A DNA stretch of 14,901 nt. Source: Nitrospirota bacterium. GTDB lineage: Bacteria > Nitrospirota > JACRHJ01. The first letter of the stretch is position 1, and the number at the start of each line of letters is the position of its first letter. The position numbers and the translations under genes were made by a program. The stretch spans positions 1-14,901 of the forward strand of contig CAWJRJ010000010.1 in the NCBI GenBank assembly GCA_963845245.1, in the 5' to 3' direction. Under the pieces are notes generated by a model. That model worked only from the letters and a program-made list of their open reading frames with translations. It searched no databases and was not told the origin of the DNA. Below are positions 622 through 14,044 of this stretch, one piece after another.

Positions 622-3080
622 ATGGCGAACTTCTTCGAGCAACAGCTTGATTACCTGATTTTCTTCTACGGTACCTCCTTCTTTGTCCTGGCCACCGCCT
701 GCTATATCGCGCGTAAACGCGGTGACGATACCCTCCCCTGGGGATGGCTTTTTCTGTTCAGCATAGCCCACGGACTCAACGAATGGCTTGACCTGGCATA
801 CCTGAACCTGGGAGGCGGCACCCTTCTGACAGTGCTGCGAATTTCCGCGCTCAGCATTTCCTTTATTTTCCTGATGGAGTTCGGAATATCAGGCACCCTG
901 CCGAAAGCGACGGCATTAAAATGGCTGCCGTTGCTCGTTGGTATAACTCCGCTTGCCGGTTTTGCTGTCGGCGTTTCCGGCGCCCTTTCAATCTGCAGGT
1001 ACCTGCCGGGCCTCACCGGGGGCATATGGGCATCGGCCGCTTTCCTTGCTGCGGCCCGGAGCAAAAACAATGCGACTTTAAAGGTCACAGCGGCTATCAT
1101 GATGTTGTATGCGCTGGAAACGGGGCTCGTCGTTGATGCCGCTCCGTTCTTCCCGGCCTCCGTCCTGAATTTTGAGACCTTCTTCAAGGCCACAGGCATA
1201 CCAGATACAGTTTTTCAAGGCTGGCACGATCTATGCGGCAAGCGTGGCAATCCTGTTTTTTATCCAGAAACGGACCAGGGAGGAACAACGGCAGGCGCCT
1301 TTCCATTTTGTGATTACCTCTGGCTGCATTTCTTTTTATAATCCTTTCCGGATTTGTCTTCACTGCATACCTGGGCAGCCATGCGGAAAAAAACGCAAAA
1401 GATGACCTCCTTACAAGGACCAAGTCCGCAGCCGCAGCCATCAACCCGGAGCGCGTGGCAAAACTTACAGGAACCGACGCGGATTTAGGCAGCCCGGACT
1501 ATATACGGCTGAAGGAACAGGTGCAGAAGATAAAGGGGGCCAACCCGGACTGCCGCTACGTCTATCTTATGGGCCTCCGTGGGGACAAGTTGATATTCCT
1601 TGTGGACGCCGAACCAGTTGGATCCAAGAATTACACAGGTCCCGGATACGTGTATGAGGACAGCTCCCCAGCTTACGTAGCAGATTATAAGGCCGGCCGC
1701 ACAACCGTATATGACGTTTACGAGGACTCCTGGGGCACCTGGGTTACCGGCTCAGACTATATACGCGACAATAAGGGCCGTGTCCTGGCCCAGTTCAGCA
1801 TGGACGTGGACGCACACAACTTCGGGCAGGTTATCCGTGAATTCAGATTTTTCGGCATACTTATAACCTTTGGCGCACTCACTGCCTTCCTGATAGGGAT
1901 GCTCAGTTTTGACTCCTACCTGACCTGGCTGCGCGTCCGACAGACAGCGGAGCATGAAGCCACGTTAATGGTAGCCCAACAGCGTGCCGCCGGAGAGAAG
2001 AAGCTGCGTTCCATAACCAGCGCACTCGGTGAAGGTATCATAGTGCAGGACTTGGAAGGCGGGATAAGTTTCGTCAATCCTGAGGCAGAGAGGCTCCTGG
2101 GGTGGGATGAACACGAGATTACGGGGTCTTCCTTGTGTGACGTCCTTAAGCACCGGGACATGGAGAACAAACTTGTACCAGAAGATAGGACTGCGGCATA
2201 TTTATCTTTTACGACTGGAGATACACACAGAGCAGAAAAGGAGTATTTCACGAGAAAAGACGGTAGCGTCTTCCCGGTATCCTATGTTTCCTCGCCAATA
2301 GTCGAAGAAGGTAAGATAAACGGAGTTGTGTTGGCTTTTCAGGACATTACCGCGCGCAGGAACCTGGAAAGACAGAGCCGCGACTTCCTGGCCATGGTAA
2401 GCCACGACCTCAAATCGCCGGTAGCCATAATTCAAGGATACACTGAATTACTTGCAAAAGAGAAGTCAGGCATACTCGATGCAGACTCACTATCAATGGT
2501 GGACAGCATAAGAAAAAGTTGCGAAAAACTTTTGAGCCTATTAAACGACTTCCTCACCATATCGAGTTCCGAGGCAGGCGCACTGACGCTGCAGCAGGCT
2601 CCCGAGGATATAACTTCGCTTGTGAGAGAGACATGTTTCAACCTCTTCCCGTTTGCGGAAAAGAAAGGCCTCGTTATCTGTACTACTTTGCAGGAAGACA
2701 TCCCCCGCGCGATCATCGACAAGATGAAGCTCCAAAGGGCCATCAGCAACCTGCTTTCAAACGCCATAAACTACACACCCTCCGGCGGCTCAATAAATGT
2801 AGGTGCCTGCACTTCCAGTGTCGGTGATGAGAAATTTATAGTATTATCCGTAGCCGATACGGGCCCAGGCATCAAGGAAGACGAGTCAGAGAAGATATTT
2901 GAAAAATATTACCGATCTCGTCATAACTCAGGAGTCAAAGGGACCGGTCTTGGTCTGGCCATCGTGCGGGCCGTAGCAAAGGCACATGGCGGGAGCGCAA
3001 CCGTCGAGAATTCCACCCCCGGAGGCGCTACTTTCAAGATCACTATCCCACTCAAAACCCCCTCCACAACAGCCATTTAA
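622..3080 (+). CDS. Membrane sensor histidine kinase (multi-TM N-terminus, periplasmic Cache-like domain, PAS/PAC, HisKA, HATPase_c); two apparent +1 frameshifts (~1204, ~1314)
   Basis: ORFs 622-1341, 1172-1405 and 1455-3080 join into ~818 aa if one base is removed near 1204 (TGIP|IQFFKAG) and one near 1314 (FHFV|IPLAAFLFIILSGFVF...). PAS 'GEGIIVQDLEGGISFVNPEAERLLGW', H-box 'VSHDLKSP', N-box 'NLLSNAINYT', G1 'DTGPGI', G2 'GTGLGLAIV'. Confidence 0.85.
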
Positions 3081-3102
3081 GGCAAAATCATCCAGTTTGG
3101 GT

Positions 3103-3131
3103 TTGACATCCGGCCCCGGTTGTCCTAAAAT
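3103..3131 (+). promoter_or_regulatory. Putative sigma70 promoter of thiF-hydG
   Basis: TTGACA (3103-3108), 17-nt spacer, TAAAAT (3126-3131); -10 ends 10 nt before ATG 3142. Confidence 0.75.
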
Positions 3132-3141
3132 TCAGGTTACA

Positions 3142-3951
3142 ATGTTGTATTTAAGAATTAACGAGCGGTCCACCGAGTTCAGTGACCCTCCCAAGCTCAT
3201 GGAGGTTCGCGCCAAGTACAAGCCGGATGCCAACCTAGTAATATTGAACGGTTTTCCAACGACTGAAAACCCAATCCTTCAAGATGGCGACAACGTAATC
3301 CTTATAAGGAAGGGCGAACAGCCGTCCAGGGACGAGCTCGAAGCCCTCATGATGGCACGCCATACCCCCGGGGTGCATGAGAAGGTAAAGCTTGCGCGGG
3401 TGGGCATAGCGGGGGTGGGCGGCCTTGGCTCCTCTGTTGCAGTCGCGCTGGCCCGCGTAGGTATCGGCGAACTGGTTCTAGCGGACTTCGATGTAGTAGA
3501 ACCAAGCAACCTCAACCGTCAGCAGTTCTTTGTCGACCAGATAGGTAAACACAAGGTCGATGCGATGGAGGAGAACCTCCGTCGTATAAACCCTTATGTC
3601 AAGGTGGTCACGCACAGGGCCTTACTTGACGAAGCCAACATCCCAGGCATATTTTGCGGAGTGGATGCGTTGGTCGAGGCATTCGACCTGGCGGAGAGCA
3701 AGGCCATGTTGATTAACTCGATGGCTCGCTCATGTCCCGGCGTACCGGTCGTCGCCTCTTCAGGGGTGGCCGGCCACAGCCCATCAAACAGCATACAGAC
3801 AACTCCTTTCAGCGTTAATTATTATATCGTGGGAGATCAGGAGACCGAAGCGGCGGCAGGAGTGGGTCTCATGGCCCCGAGGGTAGGGATCGCTGCCCAC
3901 CACCAGGCGAACTGCGTCTTGAGGCTCCTGCTCGGAGAAACCGGAGAGTAA
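3142..3951 (+). CDS. thiF: Sulfur carrier protein ThiS adenylyltransferase ThiF with N-terminal ThiS-like ubiquitin domain
   Basis: 'VGIAGVGGLGS', 'DFDVVEPSNLNRQ', 'VEAFD', C-terminal 'GLMAPRVGIAAHHQAN' of the ThiF family-2 type. N-terminal ~60 aa ('YKPDANLVILNGFP...LQDGDNVILIRKG') is ThiS-like. The 3142 start is preferred over 2986, which overlaps the kinase. Confidence 0.9.
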   Translation: MLYLRINERSTEFSDPPKLMEVRAKYKPDANLVILNGFPTTENPILQDGDNVILIRKGEQPSRDELEALMMARHTPGVHEKVKLARVGIAGVGGLGSSVAVALARVGIGELVLADFDVVEPSNLNRQQFFVDQIGKHKVDAMEENLRRINPYVKVVTHRALLDEANIPGIFCGVDALVEAFDLAESKAMLINSMARSCPGVPVVASSGVAGHSPSNSIQTTPFSVNYYIVGDQETEAAAGVGLMAPRVGIAAHHQANCVLRLLLGETGE

Positions 3952-3958
3952 CAAAAGA

Positions 3959-5335
3959 ATGGCTGCACAAGATTTGGTTACAGACATCGCAGGCAGGGTC
4001 GAGGCGGCGCTATGCGCGGCAGGAAAGTACGATGCCTCAAGGCTTGAGGATATCCTCGCAAAGGCAGAACTGGCGGAAGGGCTTTCTCTCGAAGAGGCCG
4101 CATTCCTGCTTGCCATTGAAAACGAAGAGATGCTTGAGCCGGTATACAGGGCTGCGGCAAATGTCAAGGACCAGGTATTCGGCCCTCGCGTTGTCCTGTT
4201 TGCACCGCTTTACCTATCTAACTACTGCTCGAACGACTGCCTTTACTGCGGCTTCAGGCGCTCAAACGACAAGGCGCGGCGGAAAGCGCTCACCCTGGAC
4301 GAGGCTGTTGAGCAGGCGCGGATCCTTTCGGCATCCGGCTTTAAGAGGATCCTCCTTGTCGCCGGCGAGCATAATACCCACTCAGGGGTTGACTACCTGA
4401 CCGAGGCCGCGGATGCCATATATTCAAAGACCGACATCAGGATACTGCACGTAAACTGCGCGCCTCTTGAGACTGAAGATTTCAGGAGGCTGAAGTCGGC
4501 AGGCTACGGCGTTTACCAGTGTTTCCAGGAGACATACCACCGCGACACCTACTCGAAGATGCACCCGACCGGCCGGAAACGGGACTACGACTTCAGGCTT
4601 GCCGCGATGGACAGGGCTCTTGAGGCCGGCTTCGGTGACGTGGGCCTTGGCGCGCTCCTGGGGCTTTATGACCACCGCTACGACGTCCTCTCGGTGATCG
4701 CTCACTCACAACACCTCGAAGAACGCTTCGGCGCGGCAGCGCATACCATATCCGTCCCACGGCTCAGGCCCGCCGAGGGCGCGCCTCTAGCCACGCCGCA
4801 ATATCCTGTTAGCGACAGCGAGTTCAAAAAGATCGTCGCGGTATATCGCCTGAGCGTCCCGTATGCTGGCGTGGTGGTCACGACACGCGAGCCCGAGGCG
4901 CTCCGCGAAGAGACGCTGGACATCGGCGCGTCGCAGATATCGGCCGGCTCGTCCACCGAACCCGGAGGCTACGGGAAAGGCGTCCACAACACGGCACAGT
5001 TCGACACGAACGACGTAAGAGAGCTTTCAACTATGATGGACGTGATTGCGCGGAAAGGCCTGCTCCCTTCGCTTTGCACTTCCTGCTACCGAAGCGGCAG
5101 ACAAGGCAACGCGTTTCTGGATGTTGCATCCTCAGGTGCGATGAAAGACTTCTGTACCCCGAACGCCTTATTGTCTCTCAAGGAATACATACTTGATACG
5201 GCCTCGGAAGGCCAGAGGAAAGCGCTGGAAGACACTCTGGACAAGTTTGTCTCGTCCGTAGACGAACCGGCAAGAAGCGACCTCATGCGGAAACTTTCGC
5301 AGGTTGAAAAAGGCGGGCGGGATATCCACTACTAA
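3959..5335 (+). CDS. hydG: Radical SAM tyrosine lyase of the HydG family ([FeFe]-hydrogenase maturase HydG / ThiH-like)
   Basis: 'FAPLYLSNYCSNDCLYCGF' (CX3CX2C, 4226-4249), 'FQETYH', 'HTISVPRLRPA', 'SQISAGSST.PGGY', and C-terminal 'SLCTSCYR...DFCTPNALLSLKEY' (CX2CX22C, 5075-5155), which is characteristic of HydG and absent from canonical ThiH. Starts 7 nt after the thiF stop, with GGAGAG upstream. Confidence 0.85.
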   Translation: MAAQDLVTDIAGRVEAALCAAGKYDASRLEDILAKAELAEGLSLEEAAFLLAIENEEMLEPVYRAAANVKDQVFGPRVVLFAPLYLSNYCSNDCLYCGFRRSNDKARRKALTLDEAVEQARILSASGFKRILLVAGEHNTHSGVDYLTEAADAIYSKTDIRILHVNCAPLETEDFRRLKSAGYGVYQCFQETYHRDTYSKMHPTGRKRDYDFRLAAMDRALEAGFGDVGLGALLGLYDHRYDVLSVIAHSQHLEERFGAAAHTISVPRLRPAEGAPLATPQYPVSDSEFKKIVAVYRLSVPYAGVVVTTREPEALREETLDIGASQISAGSSTEPGGYGKGVHNTAQFDTNDVRELSTMMDVIARKGLLPSLCTSCYRSGRQGNAFLDVASSGAMKDFCTPNALLSLKEYILDTASEGQRKALEDTLDKFVSSVDEPARSDLMRKLSQVEKGGRDIHY

Positions 5336-7342
5336 TAGATTATAACGTCCTTGTCAAGCTGTACGGGGGGCAGCTCCCCGGAGGCATCCTTTACTCCAGC
5401 CATGTCTTCAAGGGATTTGACTGCGCAATTCCGCACCCGTTCGCTCGGGTCCTTCTCCGCCGACCTTTCAAGCTCGCCTCTTGAGCCGGGCTCCATGATC
5501 ATCCCCAATGCCAGGGCCACCTGCACCCTCACCGACTCGTCATCTTCAAACCGGAGCATGTCGGTAAGCGGCTTTGCCGAACTCTTGAGCCCGAGCATCC
5601 CAAGCGACCATGCAGCAATGCCGCGTATGCCGGCATCCTTGTCCTGCAGGGCCTCAACCAATACCTTTTCGGCGGTCGGCTCTTTTATGAAACCAAGCGA
5701 CCTCACCGCCTCCACCCTCACCCTGGGCTCAGGGTCTTTCGCCTGGGAGATTATGCTGTCGAAGGCCCTCTGGTCGCCAAGCTTGCCAAGCGCGCGCAGG
5801 ACCTCGACTCGCACGGGGATGACCGTCTCTTCGACAAGAAGCCCCGTCAGAGACGGCAGGCTTTCCGTACTGCCGACGTTGCCCAGCGCGCCGGCCGCCA
5901 GCCGCCTCACTTCGGAGTCTTCGTCCTTGAGTGCCCTGACGAGCGCAGAAACCGACTTTACCGATTTGATGTTCCACAAGGCCGCGGCAGCGGCCCTCCT
6001 GATATCGGCAGGCCCTGACGACAGACATTTAAGGAGCGGATCGACGGCCTCCTCGCTCTTTATCTGCCCAAGCACGGATATGGCAAGAAGCCTGAAGGCC
6101 GGGCTTTCCTCGTCCAGCATCATGCACAGCCTCTTCACCGCCTTCGTGTCCATACCGAAGGTCTTGGCAAGGTCTGTCTCCTTCTCCTGGAAGAACACCC
6201 CTTCCGGCATCTTCACGTGGGCCGCTTCCCATACGGCGTTGTCCTTGTCAAGCCGGACCGGGCCGAACGTCCTTGTAATGCGCCTGGAAGGGTCATCCCC
6301 GTGAAGCAGTATCTTGAGGAATGCGTTTGCGCCGTTTTCCTTAAGGCCTGGGTTGTACTTCACAAAGAACGTATAGACTTCGGGCGAAGCGACCTCAAGG
6401 GAGAACACCTCCGGCCCGAACGAGCCCTTACGGTCCATATCGAGCGAGCCGGCCGGTATTGCAGCCTCGCACAGCCACGCATCCGGGGCTTCATTGAATG
6501 TATGGTGGCCGAAGCTGTCCCACACATGCAGGTCGAAGTCGGCGGTCGGGCTGTCCCACGTGAGTATGGCCACCAGGTCCTTCGGTCTGGCGTCGAACGT
6601 GTTGACCCTTACCGACGCACTCCTGCCGGCATGGCCCGAGCGGTTCACCGCCTCCACAGCGAGTGTGTTGACTCCGGGTAAAAGAGCTGCATTCTGGCTC
6701 ATGACCCCTTTTTCAAAGGCAACCCTTTTAGGCATACCGTTTATGACAAGATACCCCTCGGATGCCTCTGAGCCGCTGACCTTTGCCGTTACGGTTATCA
6801 CCCTGTCGGACGTCAGGTCAAGCGATGCACCGTCCCTGGGTTCTGTTATAACCACCTTGGGGCCGCCCGGCAGAGGCCTTGTAGAAGACCTCCACCGAGT
6901 CCTTGCCGAGGTTGCCGTCAAGGTCCGCGGCCAGCGCAACGATCTTGTTGATGCCAGGCTCAAGGGCCAGGTCGGTCTCGAACACGCCCCCGTTTGCCGC
7001 CACGACCTGTGTCTCGTTGTTTACCCTCAGGAATATCTTGGTTATCCCACTGCCGACCCTGCCCCTTATCTTGCAGCAGGAGCGCTCGGAATTCCCTGGA
7101 GATGGCTCTATAATCGCGACCAGCGGGTCTTTCTTGGCAAGCCTTGCCGCCTTTGATATATCTTCCCGTTTTATGGAAAGGCCCCTCTCCTCCGGGACCG
7201 CCTTCTTTACGCCATCGATGGTCGGAAGCAGACTCAACCCTTCCCTCTCGACGGGCGCTACTTCACGCCTTTCCACTGCGAGGGCAGGGCAGGCGCTAAC
7301 GGCAGACAGGGCAACCAATATTGCGGCAACCAGTGTTTTCAT
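5332..7342 (-). CDS. Exported protein: signal peptide, two Ig-like domains, YfaP/DUF2135-like domain, C-terminal HEAT/PBS-lyase repeats; one apparent +1 frameshift (~6866-6880)
   Basis: ORFs 6818-7342 and 5332-6963 fuse to ~669 aa by removing one base (EVFYKASA|GGPKVVITEP). Signal peptide MKTLVAAILVALSAVSACPALA. Two 'P.V.I.EP..G...L.PG.N.I...A....G..G' units. 'DLVAILTWDSPTADFDLHVWD...GSLDMD...FGPEVF' resembles YfaP. About 8 HEAT-like units (e.g. 'DEDSEVRRLAAGALGNVG'). Confidence 0.8.
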
Positions 7343-9185
7343 CTATTGAGCCGTCTTCCCCGATGTCTCTTTTATCTTCTCTTCGACCTTCGCCAGGCTT
7401 CCGGCGGCCTTTTCGTTTCTGGGGTCGAGCTTAAGCACCTCGCGCCACTTCGCCACAGCTTCCCTGAGTTCGCCCTTTGTATAGTGCTCAACACCCTCGA
7501 GGTAGAGCCGCCTGATTTCCTGCTCGCTTGCGGCGGGCTGTGCCGCCTGCCTCTCCTGTGATGCGCGCGCGGCCTCGGACTCCTGGATGCGTGCGTTCTC
7601 GGCCGCTATCCTTGCCATGGTATCGTCGAGCCCCTTCTTTGCAGAAAGGTCTTCCGGGAGGTATTTCACAAGCCTCTCGTACGATTTCCTGGCAGCGGAA
7701 AGCCTGCCTTCATCAAATGCGGCCTTTGCCTTCGCTCTTTCATCCTGTATGCGGCCCTGGACCTGCGAGAGCGACTTGGCTGCGGGCCCGTCTGTAGGGT
7801 CCAGCGCGATTATCTTCTCGTACCAGCCGGACGCCTCTCCAAGCGCCTCCCTCTGCATGGCGTCTTTTGCCTTGGCCCTCAAGGACCCGACCTCGGCCGC
7901 GATACGTCCTGCCACTTCCTTTTCAAGCTCCGCCGCCTGCCTGTTGCCGGGGTAGGCCCTTACTATCTGCCCGCACAACTCTTTCGCCTCCGGTAGTTCG
8001 CCCTTTGAAAGTGCCGCCCTGACGGCAGGCGTTTTTTCGTTTATGTCCCTCTCGACGCGTGCCTTTGCCTCTTTCAGCCCTTTGGCGGCATCGGAATTTG
8101 ACGGGTCAAGCGATGCGGCCTTCTCGTACAAGGCTAAGGCAGAGCCAAGTTCACCCATTGCAGAGGCGTCACTGGCTTCTTTCAGGGCCGATTCCGCCGA
8201 TGCCCTCTGCGCCACTTCAAGCTGGGCCCGCGCACGGGACATATCCGGCCTAAGCTCCAGAGCCTGCCTGAACTCTGAGGCGGCATCCTCGTACCGTTCC
8301 AGCGAGAACAGGTTGTAGCCCCTGTAATAATGGGCATCCGCGTCGTTCGGCTTTATCCTTATCGCCCTCTCGAACATCTCTGCAGCCTGCCCTGCTTTGT
8401 CCCTGTTCTGGTAATCGACGCCTATGTTAAAGAAGGCGGTGGCAAGCGCATCCTTCGTCTTCTCGTCAGCCTGCTCTTTGAGGACGATCCTGTCAAAATA
8501 TGTCTTTGCAGCTGAGTAGCCGTTCTCTTTGTAATTTATCATGCCCATGTAATATAGGGCTTCGAAGTTGTCAGGGTCCGCTTCCAGCGCAGCCGAGAAC
8601 TCCTGGATCGCATCTGAGTAGCGTTCCTGCCCGTACCATATCCTGCCCCCAGCGTTCCTTATCAATGCCGTCGCCGCGGCATCTCCGGCCTTCGCCGACC
8701 TTGCCTTTTCAAGCTCTGCCAGCGCGGCAGCGAACTCCTTCTTTTCCGCCTTGACCAGCCCCATGTAATAACGGGCGTCACCGTCGTTTGGGTCCGCCTC
8801 CAGGGCTATTGCAAGGCTCTTCTCAGACCTGACGAAATCCTTGGCCTTGTAATACGCGCTCCCCAGGTTTGCGAATGCGGCAGCGAAGTTGAACTCCGAT
8901 GTTACCCCCATGCCGGCCGCAGCCTCCTTTGCCCTTGGCCAGGCTGTCGGATGCCTCATCGAACCTTCCGACCTTATAATATGCCAGGCCCGCATGGTAT
9001 TGCAGGTACGGGTCCTTCGGCTCCTTTGCGGCAAGCGGCGCAAGTATCCTCAGCGCCTCATCCGCCTTGCCCGCGCGCAGGTATGCAACGCCCTTTTCAT
9101 ATGAGCCGTCCGACGCATATGCAGATACGGCAAAAATGACGGCTGCAGCGACGGCTAAAAGTATCCTAAGACCTTGGTTTTTCAC
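7343..9185 (-). CDS. Exported tetratricopeptide repeat (TPR) protein; one apparent +1 frameshift (~8932-8936)
   Basis: GTG start at 9185 with SD GAGGT 5 nt upstream, signal peptide MKNQGLRILLAVAAAVIFAVSAYA. Fuses with ORF 7343-9043 by removing one base (DSLAK|AKEAAAG) to ~613 aa. Many TPR units ('ALEADPNDGDARYYMG', 'AIRIKPNDADAHYYRG'). Confidence 0.85.
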
Positions 9186-10575
9186 CGATTACCTCGTATA
9201 CCTGTTGCGGTTCGTTTTTCCCTTTGAGCATTACCTTTTCTTTTTTCTCGATCTCAAACTGCCCGCTCACCAGCCTGAACGTCTCTTCACTGATTATTAT
9301 GTCCTCTTCCCGGGATAGCGGGACAAGCCTTGCCGCGAGGTTTACGGCGTCCCCGACTACGGTATAATTCATGCGCGACTGCGAGCCCACATTACCCGCC
9401 ACTACAGTACCGCTGTTTATCCCTATACCGATATGCACCGGCAGCAACCCGCCTTTAACACGCCTCTCGTTGAACTGGCGCATGGCCTCACGCATCTTTA
9501 AAGCAGTCCTGATGCACCGTACCGCGTCGTCTTCCGCCTTGACCGGCACGCCGTATATGACCATCATGGCGTCGCCTATGAACTTGTCTATAAAGCCGCC
9601 GTTCTCGAACACGATATCGACCATTAGTGAGAAATATTCGTTCAGGAACGATATCACTCCTTTCGGGTCAAGCTTCTCAGCCATTGCGGTAAAACCTCTG
9701 ATGTCGGTGAACAATATGGTCACGTACCTGTGCTCGCCGCCAAGCTGAAGCTTGGTATGCTCTGGGTCGCCAAGCAGTTTGTCCGCGAGTTCCTTGCTCA
9801 TATAGCGTGCAAAACTGTCCTTGATAAGCTCCTTTTCGCGGAGCCCCCTTGCCATGTCGTTGAACGCCAGAGCCAGCTCGCCTATCTCGTCCAGCCTCTT
9901 TACCTCGACCTTCTGGTCCAGGTTGCCGCGCCCTATAGCGTTTACGCCCTCCACCAGCTCGTTGATGGGCGAGAAGGTCACCCTGGCAAGGGTGAATGCA
10001 CCTACGCCGCCCAGCAGAAGCCCGATCAGGGCCACGCCCCCGACCGTACGCCTCACCTTTGATGCAGCCTCTTCTATCACCGCGCTTGAAAGGCCCAGGT
10101 GCACCTGACCGAGCGTCTTTTTCTCCACCCCGGCAAGGGTGATCGGCACGGATATGTCGTAAAGGTCGTAGCCGTCAGGACCCTTTGCCTCCTCGATTAC
10201 ATAGCCGTCGCCTTTCTCAAGGGCCTTGAGGCCTGGCCAGGGCTGGTAGGGCGTACCGGACTTTTTTATGTCGCTGTGGGCGCGTACGACCCCTGAGCCG
10301 TCCACTATCTGGATATAGCTTACGCCCCTGTTGTTCATGGAGGATGTTATAAACTGGAAGAGGTACAGCTCGTCGCCTTTACCCACAAGGGCGTCCTCCG
10401 AGGAGCGGGCGATGTTCTTGGCAATCGCTATGCCCTTCTCCTTTATCTCAAATGAAAGGCTGCGGCGCATCTTGTCGGCCGTTACGGCCATAACGATGGC
10501 GCCGACTGCCGCGATGAGGACTATCGTGAACAGGGCCAGTTTTACTCGCAGGCTGAATATGGATTTTTTGGGCAT
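9166..10575 (-). CDS. Membrane-anchored class III adenylate cyclase (TM, periplasmic Cache-like domain, TM, HAMP, cyclase)
   Basis: Likely start MPKKSIFSLRVK at 10575. Two TM helices, HAMP 'PINELVEGVNAIGRGNLDQKVEVKRLDEIGELALAFNDMA'. Catalytic motifs 'ILFTDIRGFT', 'DKFIGDAMM', 'IGIGINSG', 'NYTVVGDAVNLAARL'. Confidence 0.92.
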   Translation of the reverse strand: MPKKSIFSLRVKLALFTIVLIAAVGAIVMAVTADKMRRSLSFEIKEKGIAIAKNIARSSEDALVGKGDELYLFQFITSSMNNRGVSYIQIVDGSGVVRAHSDIKKSGTPYQPWPGLKALEKGDGYVIEEAKGPDGYDLYDISVPITLAGVEKKTLGQVHLGLSSAVIEEAASKVRRTVGGVALIGLLLGGVGAFTLARVTFSPINELVEGVNAIGRGNLDQKVEVKRLDEIGELALAFNDMARGLREKELIKDSFARYMSKELADKLLGDPEHTKLQLGGEHRYVTILFTDIRGFTAMAEKLDPKGVISFLNEYFSLMVDIVFENGGFIDKFIGDAMMVIYGVPVKAEDDAVRCIRTALKMREAMRQFNERRVKGGLLPVHIGIGINSGTVVAGNVGSQSRMNYTVVGDAVNLAARLVPLSREEDIIISEETFRLVSGQFEIEKKEKVMLKGKNEPQQVYEVIGEKPRS

Positions 10576-10695
10576 ATGCGCACCGGCAGGATTATCGATT
10601 ACTGTATATTTTTTACACGGATAAACTACCATAACAGGCATGGAAAGACAACACTTAACTGCCGACCACATTGGAAGAGGCGGGAGAAAAATACC

Positions 10696-10724
10696 TTGAT
10701 AAAAACCCGTCCGGCATCTATACT
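10696..10724 (+). promoter_or_regulatory. Putative sigma70 promoter of thiS (leaderless architecture)
   Basis: TTGATA (10696-10701), 17-nt spacer, TATACT (10719-10724), 6 nt, then ATG 10731; no SD. Confidence 0.7.
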
Positions 10725-10730
10725 TTTCAT

Positions 10731-10928
10731 ATGAAAATTCAGGTGAACGGAAATGAGATGACCATGGATGAGGGAGCTACGGTTGCCTCTCTGCTTGAAG
10801 GACTGGGGCTTTCGGACAAGAAGGTAGCCGTGGAGCACAACATGGTTATCCTCGCAAGGGACGGCTACGGCACTACATTGAACGAAGGCGACGTGATTGA
10901 GATAATAAGCTTTGTCGGCGGAGGTTGA
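10731..10928 (+). CDS. thiS: Sulfur carrier protein ThiS
   Basis: 65 aa, MKIQVNG...VAVEHN...LNEGDVIEIISFVGGG with C-terminal di-glycine; classic ThiS pattern. Confidence 0.95.
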   Translation: MKIQVNGNEMTMDEGATVASLLEGLGLSDKKVAVEHNMVILARDGYGTTLNEGDVIEIISFVGGG

Positions 10929-10944
10929 ACCATCAGGGGGAGAC

Positions 10945-11922
10945 ATGGAGAACATAGCCAGACGATTTTTTTCTAATTATCTTCGGATCGACAAGGAGCT
11001 TATCATAATACTGCTCCTTGTGACAATCACGGCGTTCATTTTCTTTTTTGTGTCAAACCAGCGCGCGTTCCTTAATTTTTTCTACGTACCGGCCCTCCTA
11101 GGCGCATATTTCTACGGTAAACGCTATGCCGCGCTAGCGGCCATTTTCTCGATTATCCTCATCGGCATAATAGCATATGCCTATCCGGATACCTTTATCA
11201 CAAAAAATGATAGCGAGTTGTATCGTTGGCTTGACATCGGCACATGGGGAGGCTTCATGCTGGTCACGGCATACCTTATGGGCCACCTTTACGAAAAAAA
11301 GGAACAGACCGCACGCGAGATAAAGAAGACCTACCAGGGGATCGTAGAGATGCTCTCGTTGATCATTGATGCCGTCGACCAGCAGACCCAGAGCCATTCA
11401 TACAGGGTATCAATGATAGCTGAACGGCTCGCTATGAAGGCAGGCTGCTCTACCGAAGAGATCGAGAACATAAGAGTCGCCGCGCTTCTTCATGACCTGG
11501 GGAAGATAGGCGTCAGCAGCGAGATACTAGCAAAGGTCGGCAAGCTCTCAGAGGAGGAACGCGCGCATATAAAGACGCACACTGCAAACGCGGTGGACAT
11601 GCTCGAACCTGTAGGAGGAAAAGTAATTGAACTCCTCCCGCTCATATTGAACCACCACGAGAGTTACGATGGGACCGGCTACAATGCTATGATAGGCGAG
11701 AAGATACCCATAGGGGCACGGATAATCGCAGTCGCAGACGTCTATGACGCACTCACCTCAGACAGGCCATACCGAAAGGCCCTAAGCCCGTTCCAGGCAA
11801 AAAGCGAGATTGTTGTCAATTCGGGGATACGGTTCGACCCTCATGTCGTCAAGGCATTCGAGCTTTCATTCCCTGAGTTCGAGACCGACTCCCACCTTTA
11901 CTCCTTAAAACTCGGCCTTTAA
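10945..11922 (+). CDS. Membrane-bound HD-GYP-family phosphohydrolase (putative cyclic dinucleotide phosphodiesterase)
   Basis: SD-like AGGGGGAG before ATG 10945, about 4 N-terminal TM helices, then 'HSYRV', 'LLHDLGKIG', 'HHESYDGTGYN', 'IPIGARIIAVADVYDALTSDRPYRK'. Confidence 0.9.
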   Translation: MENIARRFFSNYLRIDKELIIILLLVTITAFIFFFVSNQRAFLNFFYVPALLGAYFYGKRYAALAAIFSIILIGIIAYAYPDTFITKNDSELYRWLDIGTWGGFMLVTAYLMGHLYEKKEQTAREIKKTYQGIVEMLSLIIDAVDQQTQSHSYRVSMIAERLAMKAGCSTEEIENIRVAALLHDLGKIGVSSEILAKVGKLSEEERAHIKTHTANAVDMLEPVGGKVIELLPLILNHHESYDGTGYNAMIGEKIPIGARIIAVADVYDALTSDRPYRKALSPFQAKSEIVVNSGIRFDPHVVKAFELSFPEFETDSHLYSLKLGL

Positions 11923-11941: not shown

Positions 11942-11975
11942 TGTTAAAATAGTTTTTATTTATTAAAAATGGAGG
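11942..11975 (+). promoter_or_regulatory. Putative extended -10 promoter and ribosome-binding site of pgi
   Basis: TGtTAAAAT (11942-11950) in an AT-rich spacer; GGAGG (11971-11975) 8 nt before ATG 11984. Confidence 0.55.
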
Positions 11976-11983
11976 CCAACGTT

Positions 11984-13415
11984 ATGGCAGACTGGAAAGA
12001 CCAGAAATGGCAGGTCGGCATGGAGATAAAGTACGACTTCAACTTCATGATGTCGGAGTTCATCGGGCCGGAGAACGGAGTAGTCAAAGGTGAGGTGGAC
12101 GCGCTCGCGGACAGGGCTGATGCGGTGCACAAGGATCTGACCGAAAAATCGCAGGGATGGCTCGCTTCCGTTTTTCGACCTCCCCTACCAGGACACATCC
12201 GCCATAAAGGAACTCGCGGACGAGCTTGCAGGCGAGTTCGAAAACTTCGTCCTGCTCGGCATCGGCGGCTCTGCGCTGGGGCCGATTGCGCTACACACCG
12301 CGCTTCGGCACCCGCACCACAACATCCGCACAAAGAAGGAGCGTGGCGGCAGGCCCAGGATGTTCTTCGTGGACAATGTTGACCCCGACCAGTTCTCAAG
12401 CCTCATGGAATCGATAAAACTCGATAAGACCGTCTTCAACGTGATTACCAAGTCAGGCGGCACGTCCGAGACGATGGCCCAGTTCATGATAGCCCGGGGC
12501 CTTGTAAAAAAGGATCTGGGGAAGAAGGCTCTCAAGAAGAACTTCGCATGCATCACAGACCCGGAGAAAGGGAACCTGCGGAAGATAGTCCGGGACGAGA
12601 AGCTTCGCTCCCTTGAGGTCCCGCCACTGGTGGGTGGCAGGTTCTCTGTGTTCACCCCTGTCGGGCTCCTCTCTGCGGCGGTCTCTGGCATAGACATCGA
12701 CGAGCTGCTTGCCGGTGCGGCCAGCATGGACATGCGCACATCCAGGCCCGGCATATGGGAGAACCCGGCATATCTCTCGGCAGCTCTCCAGTACCTTGCG
12801 GACACCAAGAAGGGCAAGAATATCTCGGTGATGATGCCCTACTCCCAGGCGCTAAAGGACGTCGCGGACTGGTACAGGCAGATATGGGCGGAGTCGCTCG
12901 GTAAGAGGCTTGACCTTCAGGGCAATGTGGTGCATACCGGGCAGACGCCGGTAAAGGCACTCGGCGCGACCGACCAGCACTCGCAGGTGCAGCTTTACAT
13001 GGAAGGCCCGAACGACAAGACGTTCACATTCCTGCGTGTGGAGGAGTTCGATACCAAGGTGACCATCCCGAAGGACTTCACGGACATCCCCGGCGCGGCG
13101 TTCCTTATAGGCAAAAGCCTGAACCAGCTTATAAACGCGGAGCAGGCGGCGACCGAGACGGCGCTGATGTCGGCGGGCAGGCCGTGCGCCACAATCACGG
13201 TCCCGGCCGTGAACCCGTTCACGCTTGGCCAGATACTCTACATGTTCGAGGTCCAGACGGCCTTTGCGGGCGGGCTGTACGGCATAGACCCGTTCGACCA
13301 GCCGGGCGTGGAAGAGGGCAAGCTCCTCACCTACGCGATGATGGACAGGCCGGGGTACGAGAAAAAGAAAAATGAACTTGAGAAGATAAAGAAGAAGGCG
13401 GGGTATGTAATTTAA
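11984..13415 (+). CDS. pgi: Glucose-6-phosphate isomerase; one apparent +1 frameshift (~12144-12148)
   Basis: Removing one A from the A5 run gives ~476 aa: ...RRDGSLPFFDLPY...VLLGIGGSALGP, 'ITKSGGTSET', 'VGGRFSVFTPVGL', 'QIWAESLGK', 'GATDQHSQVQLY', 'PFDQPGVEEGK'. Confidence 0.95.
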
Positions 13416-13422
13416 TGAACAA

Positions 13423-13451
13423 AGGGGGCCTTCAAGCCCCCTATTCTTTTT
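13423..13451. terminator. Probable bidirectional intrinsic terminator between convergent pgi and rsmD
   Basis: 7-bp stem AGGGGGC (13423-13429) / GCCCCCT (13436-13442), 6-nt loop, followed by ATTCTTTTT on + and TTGTT on -. Confidence 0.75.
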
Positions 13452-14008
13452 CTAAAAGCCTGTACACACTCACGACTGTATCGCCGTAGTTATAATCCTT
13501 CTTCTTGTCTAGACGCCCTATCTCTTCCGGGGCGTGGTATTTCTTAAAATGCTCGAAAACAATTATTGCGTCTGCCGAAAGGTACACCGCGTCCTCTGCA
13601 CCAAGCAGTTCCATCGTATCCATGCCTACCTTCTCATGGTATGGCGGGTCAACGAACACGATATCGAACGGCCCAAGCTCCGAGGCGGTCTTCTTAAGGA
13701 ACTGAAGCACGTCCTTTGTCACAACGGCGGCATGATCGCGGTAGCCCAGTGCTTCGAGGTTCTCGGATATCAACCTGGTGGACTTCACCGAGCTATCTAC
13801 GAACACCACCCTGGCTGCGCCGCGGGAGAGCGCCTCAATCCCAACCGCGCCCGGTGCCCGCAAAAAGCTCTAGGAAGCTCGCATCGTCCACATTGCCGCC
13901 AATTATGGAAAACAGCGCCTCGCGCACCTTGTCCGATGTCGGCCTGACGCCGCCGTGCTTCGGAGGCTTTATCTTGCGCCCCTTTGATTCACCGCCTGAT
14001 ATCCTCAT
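13441..14008 (-). CDS. rsmD: 16S rRNA (guanine966-N2)-methyltransferase RsmD; one apparent +1 frameshift (~13850-13852)
   Basis: ATG at 14008 gives MRISGGESKGRKIKPPKHGGVRPTSDKVREALFSII...FLELFAGTG; removing one base continues AVGIEALSRGA...'DIVFVDPPY'...'YGDT'; ~188 aa. Confidence 0.93.
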
Positions 14009-14014
14009 GCCGCT

Positions 14015-14044
14015 ATTCTAAAGGCTGGCTTAAGCGCAAGTCAA
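14015..14044 (-). promoter_or_regulatory. Putative sigma70 promoter of rsmD (leaderless architecture)
   Basis: Minus strand: TTGACT (14044-14039), 18-nt spacer, TAGAAT (14020-14015), 6 nt, then ATG 14008; no SD. Confidence 0.65.

Follow-up and report, generated by a model that had tools for sequence, protein, structure and literature searches.

To our knowledge, few bacterial class III adenylate cyclases have identified extracytoplasmic signals, and hardly any are known to be controlled by accessory proteins. Among nucleotide cyclases more widely, the closest parallel in architecture to the locus described here is YfiBNR (TpbB) of Pseudomonas aeruginosa, where the cyclase YfiN is repressed by YfiR, which in turn is sequestered by YfiB, a lipoprotein of the outer membrane (PMC4887326, PMC4655355). 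The locus is a trio of minus-strand genes encoding a sensor adenylate cyclase (gene 1), an exported tetratricopeptide repeat (TPR) protein (gene 2) and an exported Ig-Ig-DUF2135-like-HEAT protein (gene 3), found on a contig of a Nitrospirota metagenome-assembled genome (G000; 2.88 Mb in 37 contigs, 90% complete, 5.2% contaminated); the whole of this contig, C10, with 14,901 b, is the window analysed. A literature search found no paper describing a cyclase-TPR-gene 3 trio, and none of the three proteins scores up to the cut-off of an NCBIfam model. An earlier note on this DNA, made from the letters alone, had not recognised the trio as a named system.

Like the trio, YfiBNR is a three-gene unit in which two exported partners accompany a nucleotide cyclase that sits in the membrane and carries a HAMP domain and a sensor facing the periplasm. 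The likeness is architectural only: the output of YfiBNR is cyclic di-GMP (c-di-GMP), made by a GGDEF domain, whereas the trio cyclase has a PF00211 domain, and in general family searches of the trio proteins neither gene 2 nor gene 3 matched a family related to YfiR or YfiB. That the partners control the cyclase has been demonstrated for YfiBNR; for the trio it is inferred. At the level of the enzyme, the nearest relatives with solved structures are the class IIIb cyclases CyaB of P. aeruginosa (3r5g, E 1.1e-37) and CyaC of Spirulina (1wc0, E 3.1e-32), both of which the catalytic domain of the trio cyclase aligns to over its full length, together with Cya2 (2w01); the trio enzyme differs from CyaB and CyaC in its N-terminal sensor, which consists of sCache_3_2 and HAMP domains. 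We know of no dedicated exported partner proteins of CyaB or CyaC. For gene 3, the comparison lies with the YfaP/DUF2135 family, to which we take MagA, MagF and COG4676 to belong. In P. aeruginosa, MagD has MagA and MagF as co-purifying partners in an envelope complex associated with the inner membrane (PMC3735191). YfaP, MagA and MagF resemble the gene 3 product in being periplasmic proteins with a related beta-sandwich, but in gene 3 the same polypeptide also carries two Ig domains and a HEAT array, the domain falls short of the Pfam threshold, and the gene lies beside that of a cyclase.

Judged from its gene order and junctions, the trio is a conserved and co-inherited operon with translationally coupled genes, restricted to one Nitrospirota family. 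The best overall explanation, which we hold tentatively and at somewhat less than even confidence, is that in this family-restricted operon the exported proteins are accessory proteins or co-sensors of the cyclase, and that the frameshifts present in the window's copy are assembly errors. The open reading frame (ORF) map bears out the three co-oriented genes of the earlier note, with the cyclase gene (469 aa) at 9166..10575, the TPR gene (~610 aa if read through) at 7343..9185 and gene 3 (~669 aa if read through) at 5332..7342. Both junctions that the note had pointed to are present in the sequence: the end of the cyclase gene (stop codon 9168-9166) shares 20 nt with the beginning of the TPR gene (GTG at 9185), and the TAG of the TPR gene (7345-7343) abuts the ATG of gene 3 at 7342.

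Among 401 sampled Nitrospirota genomes from 162 genera, full-length gene 3 orthologues were found in three genomes (3/162 genera), all of them in one family, f1, and a 41-genome set gave an agreeing result. A pattern scan of genome contigs confirmed relatives at 6 of 33 pattern-matching stretches, two of them full-length and both from genomes already in the gene 3 set; the same kind of scan in metagenome contigs confirmed relatives at 9 of 60, six of which are full-length. Nine gene 3 loci formed the set for the synteny counts. The TPR gene lies directly upstream of gene 3 in eight of the nine, the contig of the ninth (L031) being too short upstream to tell, and the cyclase gene lies upstream of the TPR gene in all six loci that reach that far, so that the three-gene order, whose conservation the note had proposed as a check, is kept wherever it could be read, within one family. 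In G003 the cyclase orthologue was found on a different contig, of 2.2 kb, and at its end, which fits a contig break. Overlap of the cyclase stop with the TPR start is found in 6/6 loci (four share an ATGA, one has a 34-nt and one a 20-nt overlap). Between the TPR gene and gene 3 there is an overlap or direct abutment in 6/8, and the remaining two loci have spacers of 18 and 62 nt. Within the family, a cyclase orthologue (E<=1e-30) occurs in the same 3 of 12 genomes as gene 3, and neither gene was found in the other nine, which are 65-97% complete. The genes upstream of the trio differ in all five loci that reach upstream, encoding HD-GYP, SLT, DUF4388-DnaJ-TPR, POR-like and LOG-like proteins.

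The window's own copy of the operon is not intact. The earlier note had treated genes 2 and 3 as whole and overlooked a 1-nt frameshift in each, which leaves the TPR gene as two ORF pieces (9185..8823 and 9043..7343) and gene 3 likewise (7342..6818 and 6963..5332). In the TPR gene, both pieces of which align to orthologues, the frame changes between ...DSLAK and EAAAG..., within 8925..8941 on the minus strand and most simply in the GGG run at 8934-8932. In gene 3, blastn against the closest relative (L029) places one extra base at 6872 as the sole frame-changing gap in an alignment with 1761 of 2009 nt identical (88%), and at the protein level the two pieces show 91% and 87% identity to L029. 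The orthologues of both genes are all single intact ORFs, of 610-695 aa for the TPR gene and 665-689 aa for gene 3. Such breaks could mean that the module is decaying, with the TPR gene and gene 3 true pseudogenes and the cyclase alone functional, a reading that draws on the frame-breaking indel in each gene and on the position of the one at 6872, which is not within a homopolymer and so also speaks against an artefact. We regard this as quite unlikely. The two genes are otherwise clean, gene 3 having no other frame-breaking gap against its intact relative, and further genes of this assembly show breaks of the same kind: the RsmD gene of the window is split at ~13850, PGI has a main frame without a start codon and is probably broken, and the frame-split genes sampled include those for an AnmK-family protein, a response regulator and a histidine kinase. 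Since housekeeping genes of the same genome are broken too, both trio frameshifts are most likely, on the sequence evidence, to be assembly indels rather than gene decay.

The extent of this damage can be gauged from ORF-to-genome matches drawn from the relatives' loci, 9 of 48 of which are split between frames in G000; the share for real genes must be higher, because the 48 include antisense shadow ORFs, and the trio genes are absent from the nine because of the coverage filter and the merging of nearby matches. The window's PAS histidine kinase (1314-3059) matches an intact 825-aa relative in three frames. A single DNA read run held 0.07 of the words, and its three contig pieces cover only 7041-7209, 9553-9805 and 9882-10113 of the window, so that both frameshift sites lie outside them. 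Because of the frameshifts, this copy of the trio is unsuitable for cloning. Regions with frame-breaking indels were also seen at 1314-3080, 11969-13415 and 13441-14017 of the window, at 56214-60053 of contig C21 and at 47547-49415 of contig C24 of the same genome, and an M29-like gene elsewhere in the genome is split as well.

Gene 1 encodes a predicted sCache-HAMP adenylate cyclase of the inner membrane, whose class IIIb-type catalytic site is complete. Its ATG at 10575 agrees with the starts of five orthologues, and its layout runs from a first transmembrane segment (TM1) through a periplasmic sCache_3_2 domain (PF17203, E 2.3e-11; 10051..10470, residues 68-207 of the 501-aa ORF) and TM2 to a HAMP domain (PF00672, E 1e-14; 9835..9990) and a class III cyclase domain (PF00211 Guanylate_cyc, E 6.7e-35; 9205..9732), all on the minus strand. 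The Pfam matches and the flanking hydrophobic segments thus agree with the periplasmic domain between two transmembrane segments, plus HAMP, that the earlier note had read from the sequence. The catalytic domain scores 120.8 bits against a PF00211 cut-off of 21.9 (123.4 bits in a second scan). In the alignment with CyaB, its FTDIRGF, IDKFIGD, NYTVVGD and VNLAARL stretches agree with the CyaB residues; two Asp, an Asn and an Arg of the CyaB and Cya2 alignments are kept, a Lys stands where Cya2 has Glu, and a Thr is present as in CyaB. We take the Lys/Thr pair to specify the substrate, the two Asp to bind metal and the Asn and Arg to act on the transition state, presumably an adenylate-specific class IIIb pattern. 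The sensor is also conserved: the Cache domain is 57-62% identical among seven orthologues, with an invariant core. A search of the PDB with the Cache profile gave one match, to the Cache structure of a methyl-accepting chemotaxis protein, and this was weak (E 0.14), and the N-terminal sensor region resembles DcuS/MalK-family sensors at scores below the NCBIfam cut-off. The genome encodes five cyclic-nucleotide-binding (cNMP-binding) domains and one or two further cyclases.

The cyclase domain also matches PADLOC models of PycC (best E 5.3e-26), which raises the possibility of a cyclic-nucleotide anti-phage system of the Pycsar type with the cyclase as its sensor. A match of this kind would be expected of class III cyclase domains in general. 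The purine-type Lys/Thr pair, the periplasmic sensor and the HAMP domain stand against such a role, and no effector was found: the TPR protein has no PADLOC match, and gene 3 has HEAT-repeat matches only. With neither neighbour of the cyclase matching an effector in the PADLOC models, the defence reading was rejected as extremely improbable.

Both exported proteins are taken to be Sec-exported: judged by eye, their N-termini look like signal peptides in the window and in every orthologue, as the earlier note had it for the window, and its description of them as built from protein-interaction modules is borne out by strong TPR, Ig-like (Glucodextran_B/Big_7) and HEAT matches. The gene 3 product consists of a signal peptide, a linker, two Ig domains, a DUF2135-like beta-sandwich, HEAT repeats and a conserved C-terminal tail. 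An AlphaFold2 (AF2) model of the L029 orthologue (pLDDT, the predicted local distance difference test, 77.1; pTM, the predicted template modelling score, 0.70) shows the signal peptide, a disordered linker of ~50 residues, the two Ig domains, the beta-sandwich at residues 256-378, a HEAT array at 399-648 and a short C-terminal strand. The HEAT array, of the PBS-lyase type (PF13646, E 5.9e-65; 5374..6147, minus strand), is matched in Foldseek by alphaRep and CpcE/F structures (E 1e-12 to 2e-7), while the whole model returned HEAT designs and generic Ig and macroglobulin (MG) matches at low TM-score, and a PDB sequence search with the N-terminal profile gave glucodextranase and Ig matches only. 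The acidic-hydrophobic tail, LDKDVIIY in the window (5335..5358, minus strand; alignment A5), follows the pattern D-x-D-[VL]-[VI]-[IV]-[YF]-COOH in 10 of the 11 A5 rows with a gene 3 C-terminus, the G002 row ending in N. A tail of this kind can be bound by TPR or PDZ domains, which makes it a candidate ligand for such a domain here. The tails end in acidic, hydrophobic and aromatic residues, as in LDKDVIIY and LDDDVVVY.

The assignment of the beta-sandwich (6187..6594, minus strand; 21-sequence alignment A8) to YfaP/DUF2135 by the earlier note stands in part. Pfam PF09906 (DUF2135; gathering score 22 bits) does not match the window's domain or the intact G003 orthologue even at E<=10, and a genome-wide DUF2135 scan gave 11.9-12.9 bits at best, with no match in the window. 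The label is supported as one of remote homology, since the profile (A4) aligns by hhalign to the DUF2135 domain of a relative (P0134) that does carry a Pfam match, at 26 bits (96.7%, E 3.6e-10, 116 columns). The note had further linked the domain to the alpha-2-macroglobulin (yfa/mag) operons of the bacterial envelope. This analogy holds at the level of the domain and is confined to it, because the window has no alpha-2-macroglobulin gene; neither the genes of the window nor the orthologous loci yielded a member of the alpha-2-macroglobulin or MG-domain families. A full-text search of the literature found no paper naming DUF2135. Modelled alone by AF2 (pLDDT 80.9), the domain has TerD proteins as its best VIA fold matches, at Z 7.7 (121 residues aligned, root-mean-square deviation 3.8) and 7.6, values under 8 that can reflect a common arrangement, and Foldseek places TerD at ranks 1-3 and 5 (E 4.3e-3 to 3.1e-2). 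These models are suggestive, not decisive, of a TerD-like Ca2+-binding beta-sandwich fold. Conserved Asp-rich motifs, ADxDLH and LDxDxxGxGPE, are seen in A8, and they might bind metal.

The Ig-Ig-DUF2135-like profile matches 7,852 representatives at E<=1e-3, most of them through the Ig domains. Eighteen of the best 150, mainly those matching in one stretch over most of the profile, were scanned with Pfam; among these the fusion of HEAT repeats to the Ig-DUF2135-like part occurs in P0012 and a fragment, P0023, only, and the HEAT-fused architecture of gene 3 was seen only beside TPR and cyclase genes. The common form of the relatives carries the module at the C-terminus of proteins of ~1,000-1,200 aa, and one scanned representative with a DUF2135-like domain has an OmpA domain. 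A cluster paralogous to the trio is present in the same genome (C21, 47851-56705; L019, L020) and in G007 (C6, L021 7762-17237), where genes for a TPR..Ig-Ig-DUF2135-like protein (1078 aa), a TPR protein (1139 aa), a HEAT protein (329 aa), an M29-like peptidase and a NarL-type regulator follow one another. The paralogous cluster resembles the trio in its Ig-Ig-DUF2135-like module (35-36% identical to that of the reference orthologue in A4), its large exported TPR protein and its HEAT protein. It differs in that HEAT is encoded by a separate gene, the module is the C-terminal part of the 1078-aa protein, behind N-terminal TPRs and a hydrophobic segment, and M29-like and NarL-type genes are present without a cyclase. 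Its 1139-aa TPR protein is YbgF/BamD-like. Between the TPR proteins of the cluster and that of the trio the similarity is of the generic repeat kind only, and they are not close paralogues. In G000 a fragmented dCache-GAF-HisKA_3 kinase is inserted in the cluster. As far as these sequences go, an envelope-located DUF2135-like domain together with TPR proteins is a recurring theme. In a KSB1 bacterium and an unclassified bacterium (L024 2625-6815; L025 4256-9486), DUF2135-like domains were observed in PEGA-bearing proteins, one of them with an Ig match, in clusters with a TPR-CsgG-like protein and a ~390-aa protein without a Pfam match, followed in KSB1 by a separate TPR protein.

If the three proteins work together, the two exported ones would belong to the pathway of the cyclase and serve it in the periplasm as accessory proteins or co-sensors. 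The TPR protein might hold either the conserved ...DDDVIIY tail or the N-terminal linker of the gene 3 product; the output of the HAMP-cyclase part would switch when this pair binds to the Cache domain or is released from it, and that output would be read by the cNMP-binding proteins of the genome. The logic would be the same as in YfiBNR, and by this analogy the trio is plausibly a YfiBNR-like accessory-protein sensor for cyclic AMP (cAMP). Functional coupling of the exported proteins with the cyclase is suggested because the gene overlaps are conserved, the cyclase and gene 3 co-occur, the flanks vary around a constant trio and the HEAT-fused form is found only beside the cyclase. The intact catalytic residues and the five cNMP-binding domains count in its favour, as does the position of the paralogous cluster beside a NarL-type response regulator and, in G000, the fragmented kinase. 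Coupling of some kind appears possible, if still short of probable, and direct gating of the cyclase by the exported proteins appears rather unlikely. Less likely again is the fully specified version, a tripartite periplasmic cAMP sensor in which a complex of the TPR and gene 3 proteins, the former perhaps clamping ...DDDVIIY-COOH, would gate the Cache-HAMP cyclase and turn an envelope cue into cAMP; the TerD-like domain would read this cue, which may be Ca2+ or else a signal of a macromolecular or proteolytic kind, and the paralogous cluster would be a sister module wired to a two-component system.

Several observations weigh against a functional link. All known trio loci belong to one family, at 55-68% amino acid identity, and 8 of the 9 loci also have a conserved HydG-ThiS/F-kinase block next to the trio; part of the synteny of the trio is thus plain relatedness. 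The presence of the cyclase and gene 3 in three genomes and their absence from nine could likewise rest on a single gain or loss, because the genomes are kin. The paralogous cluster has no cyclase in either G000 or G007, which suggests that TPR, DUF2135-like and HEAT proteins have a role of their own. Cache domains, moreover, usually bind small molecules directly, and the invariant Cache core fits direct binding of a small ligand.

These same points feed an alternative, joint transcription of the genes without a mechanistic link: the Cache domain would sense a small periplasmic ligand by itself, and the exported proteins would be envelope scaffolds that are either simply co-expressed with the cyclase or an output produced together with it. 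The sensor region's resemblance to DcuS/MalK-family sensors, though below cut-off, points the same way as the Cache core, and so do the distant DUF2135-like proteins with CsgG-like/TPR, PEGA and OmpA domains, whose envelope contexts, like that of the paralogous cluster, lack cyclases. Strict co-occurrence and the conserved stop/start overlaps are harder to reconcile with independence, as is the restriction of the fused gene 3 architecture to the neighbourhood of TPR and cyclase genes. We consider independence a serious possibility, though not one to which we would give an even chance.

The accessory or co-sensor interpretation would place the trio, by analogy, best as a new form of accessory-protein-coupled membrane cyclase. 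If it is correct, this compact co-inherited cyclase-TPR-HEAT unit would be a tractable case, because its three genes lend themselves to expression in a cyaA-deficient E. coli, and would provide a first functional handle on the DUF2135/YfaP domain. At present it is a lineage-restricted operon in one uncultured Nitrospirota family, and a hint of a new envelope-sensing route.

The surroundings of the operon add some detail. The upstream intergenic region at 10576..10911, a presumed promoter region from the ORF map, is common to the cyclase gene and a divergent gene. A consensus scan found no sigma-70-like minus-strand site in this region, with site counts near chance, and the promoter and terminator scan was at chance level. 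The divergent gene (10912-11922) encodes a membrane HD-GYP protein (HD_5, E 7.5e-31), which falls below the cut-off of the model for NosR-type c-di-GMP phosphodiesterases and is not conserved as a neighbour in the other loci. Downstream, a convergent HydG-like radical S-adenosylmethionine (SAM) gene is found in eight of the nine loci, and in two of these an ankyrin/TPR gene intervenes; a gene for such an ankyrin and TPR protein, of ~408 aa, directly follows gene 3 in L014 (12056-13285) and L030 (9902-11125). The radical SAM gene of the window (2986-5335) scores 426 bits against the HydG equivalog cut-off of 312 in NCBIfam, and 331 against the ThiH cut-off of 380, which is not reached. It follows a ThiS-like/ThiF fusion, and its 3' end overlaps that of gene 3 by 4 nt (5332-5335).

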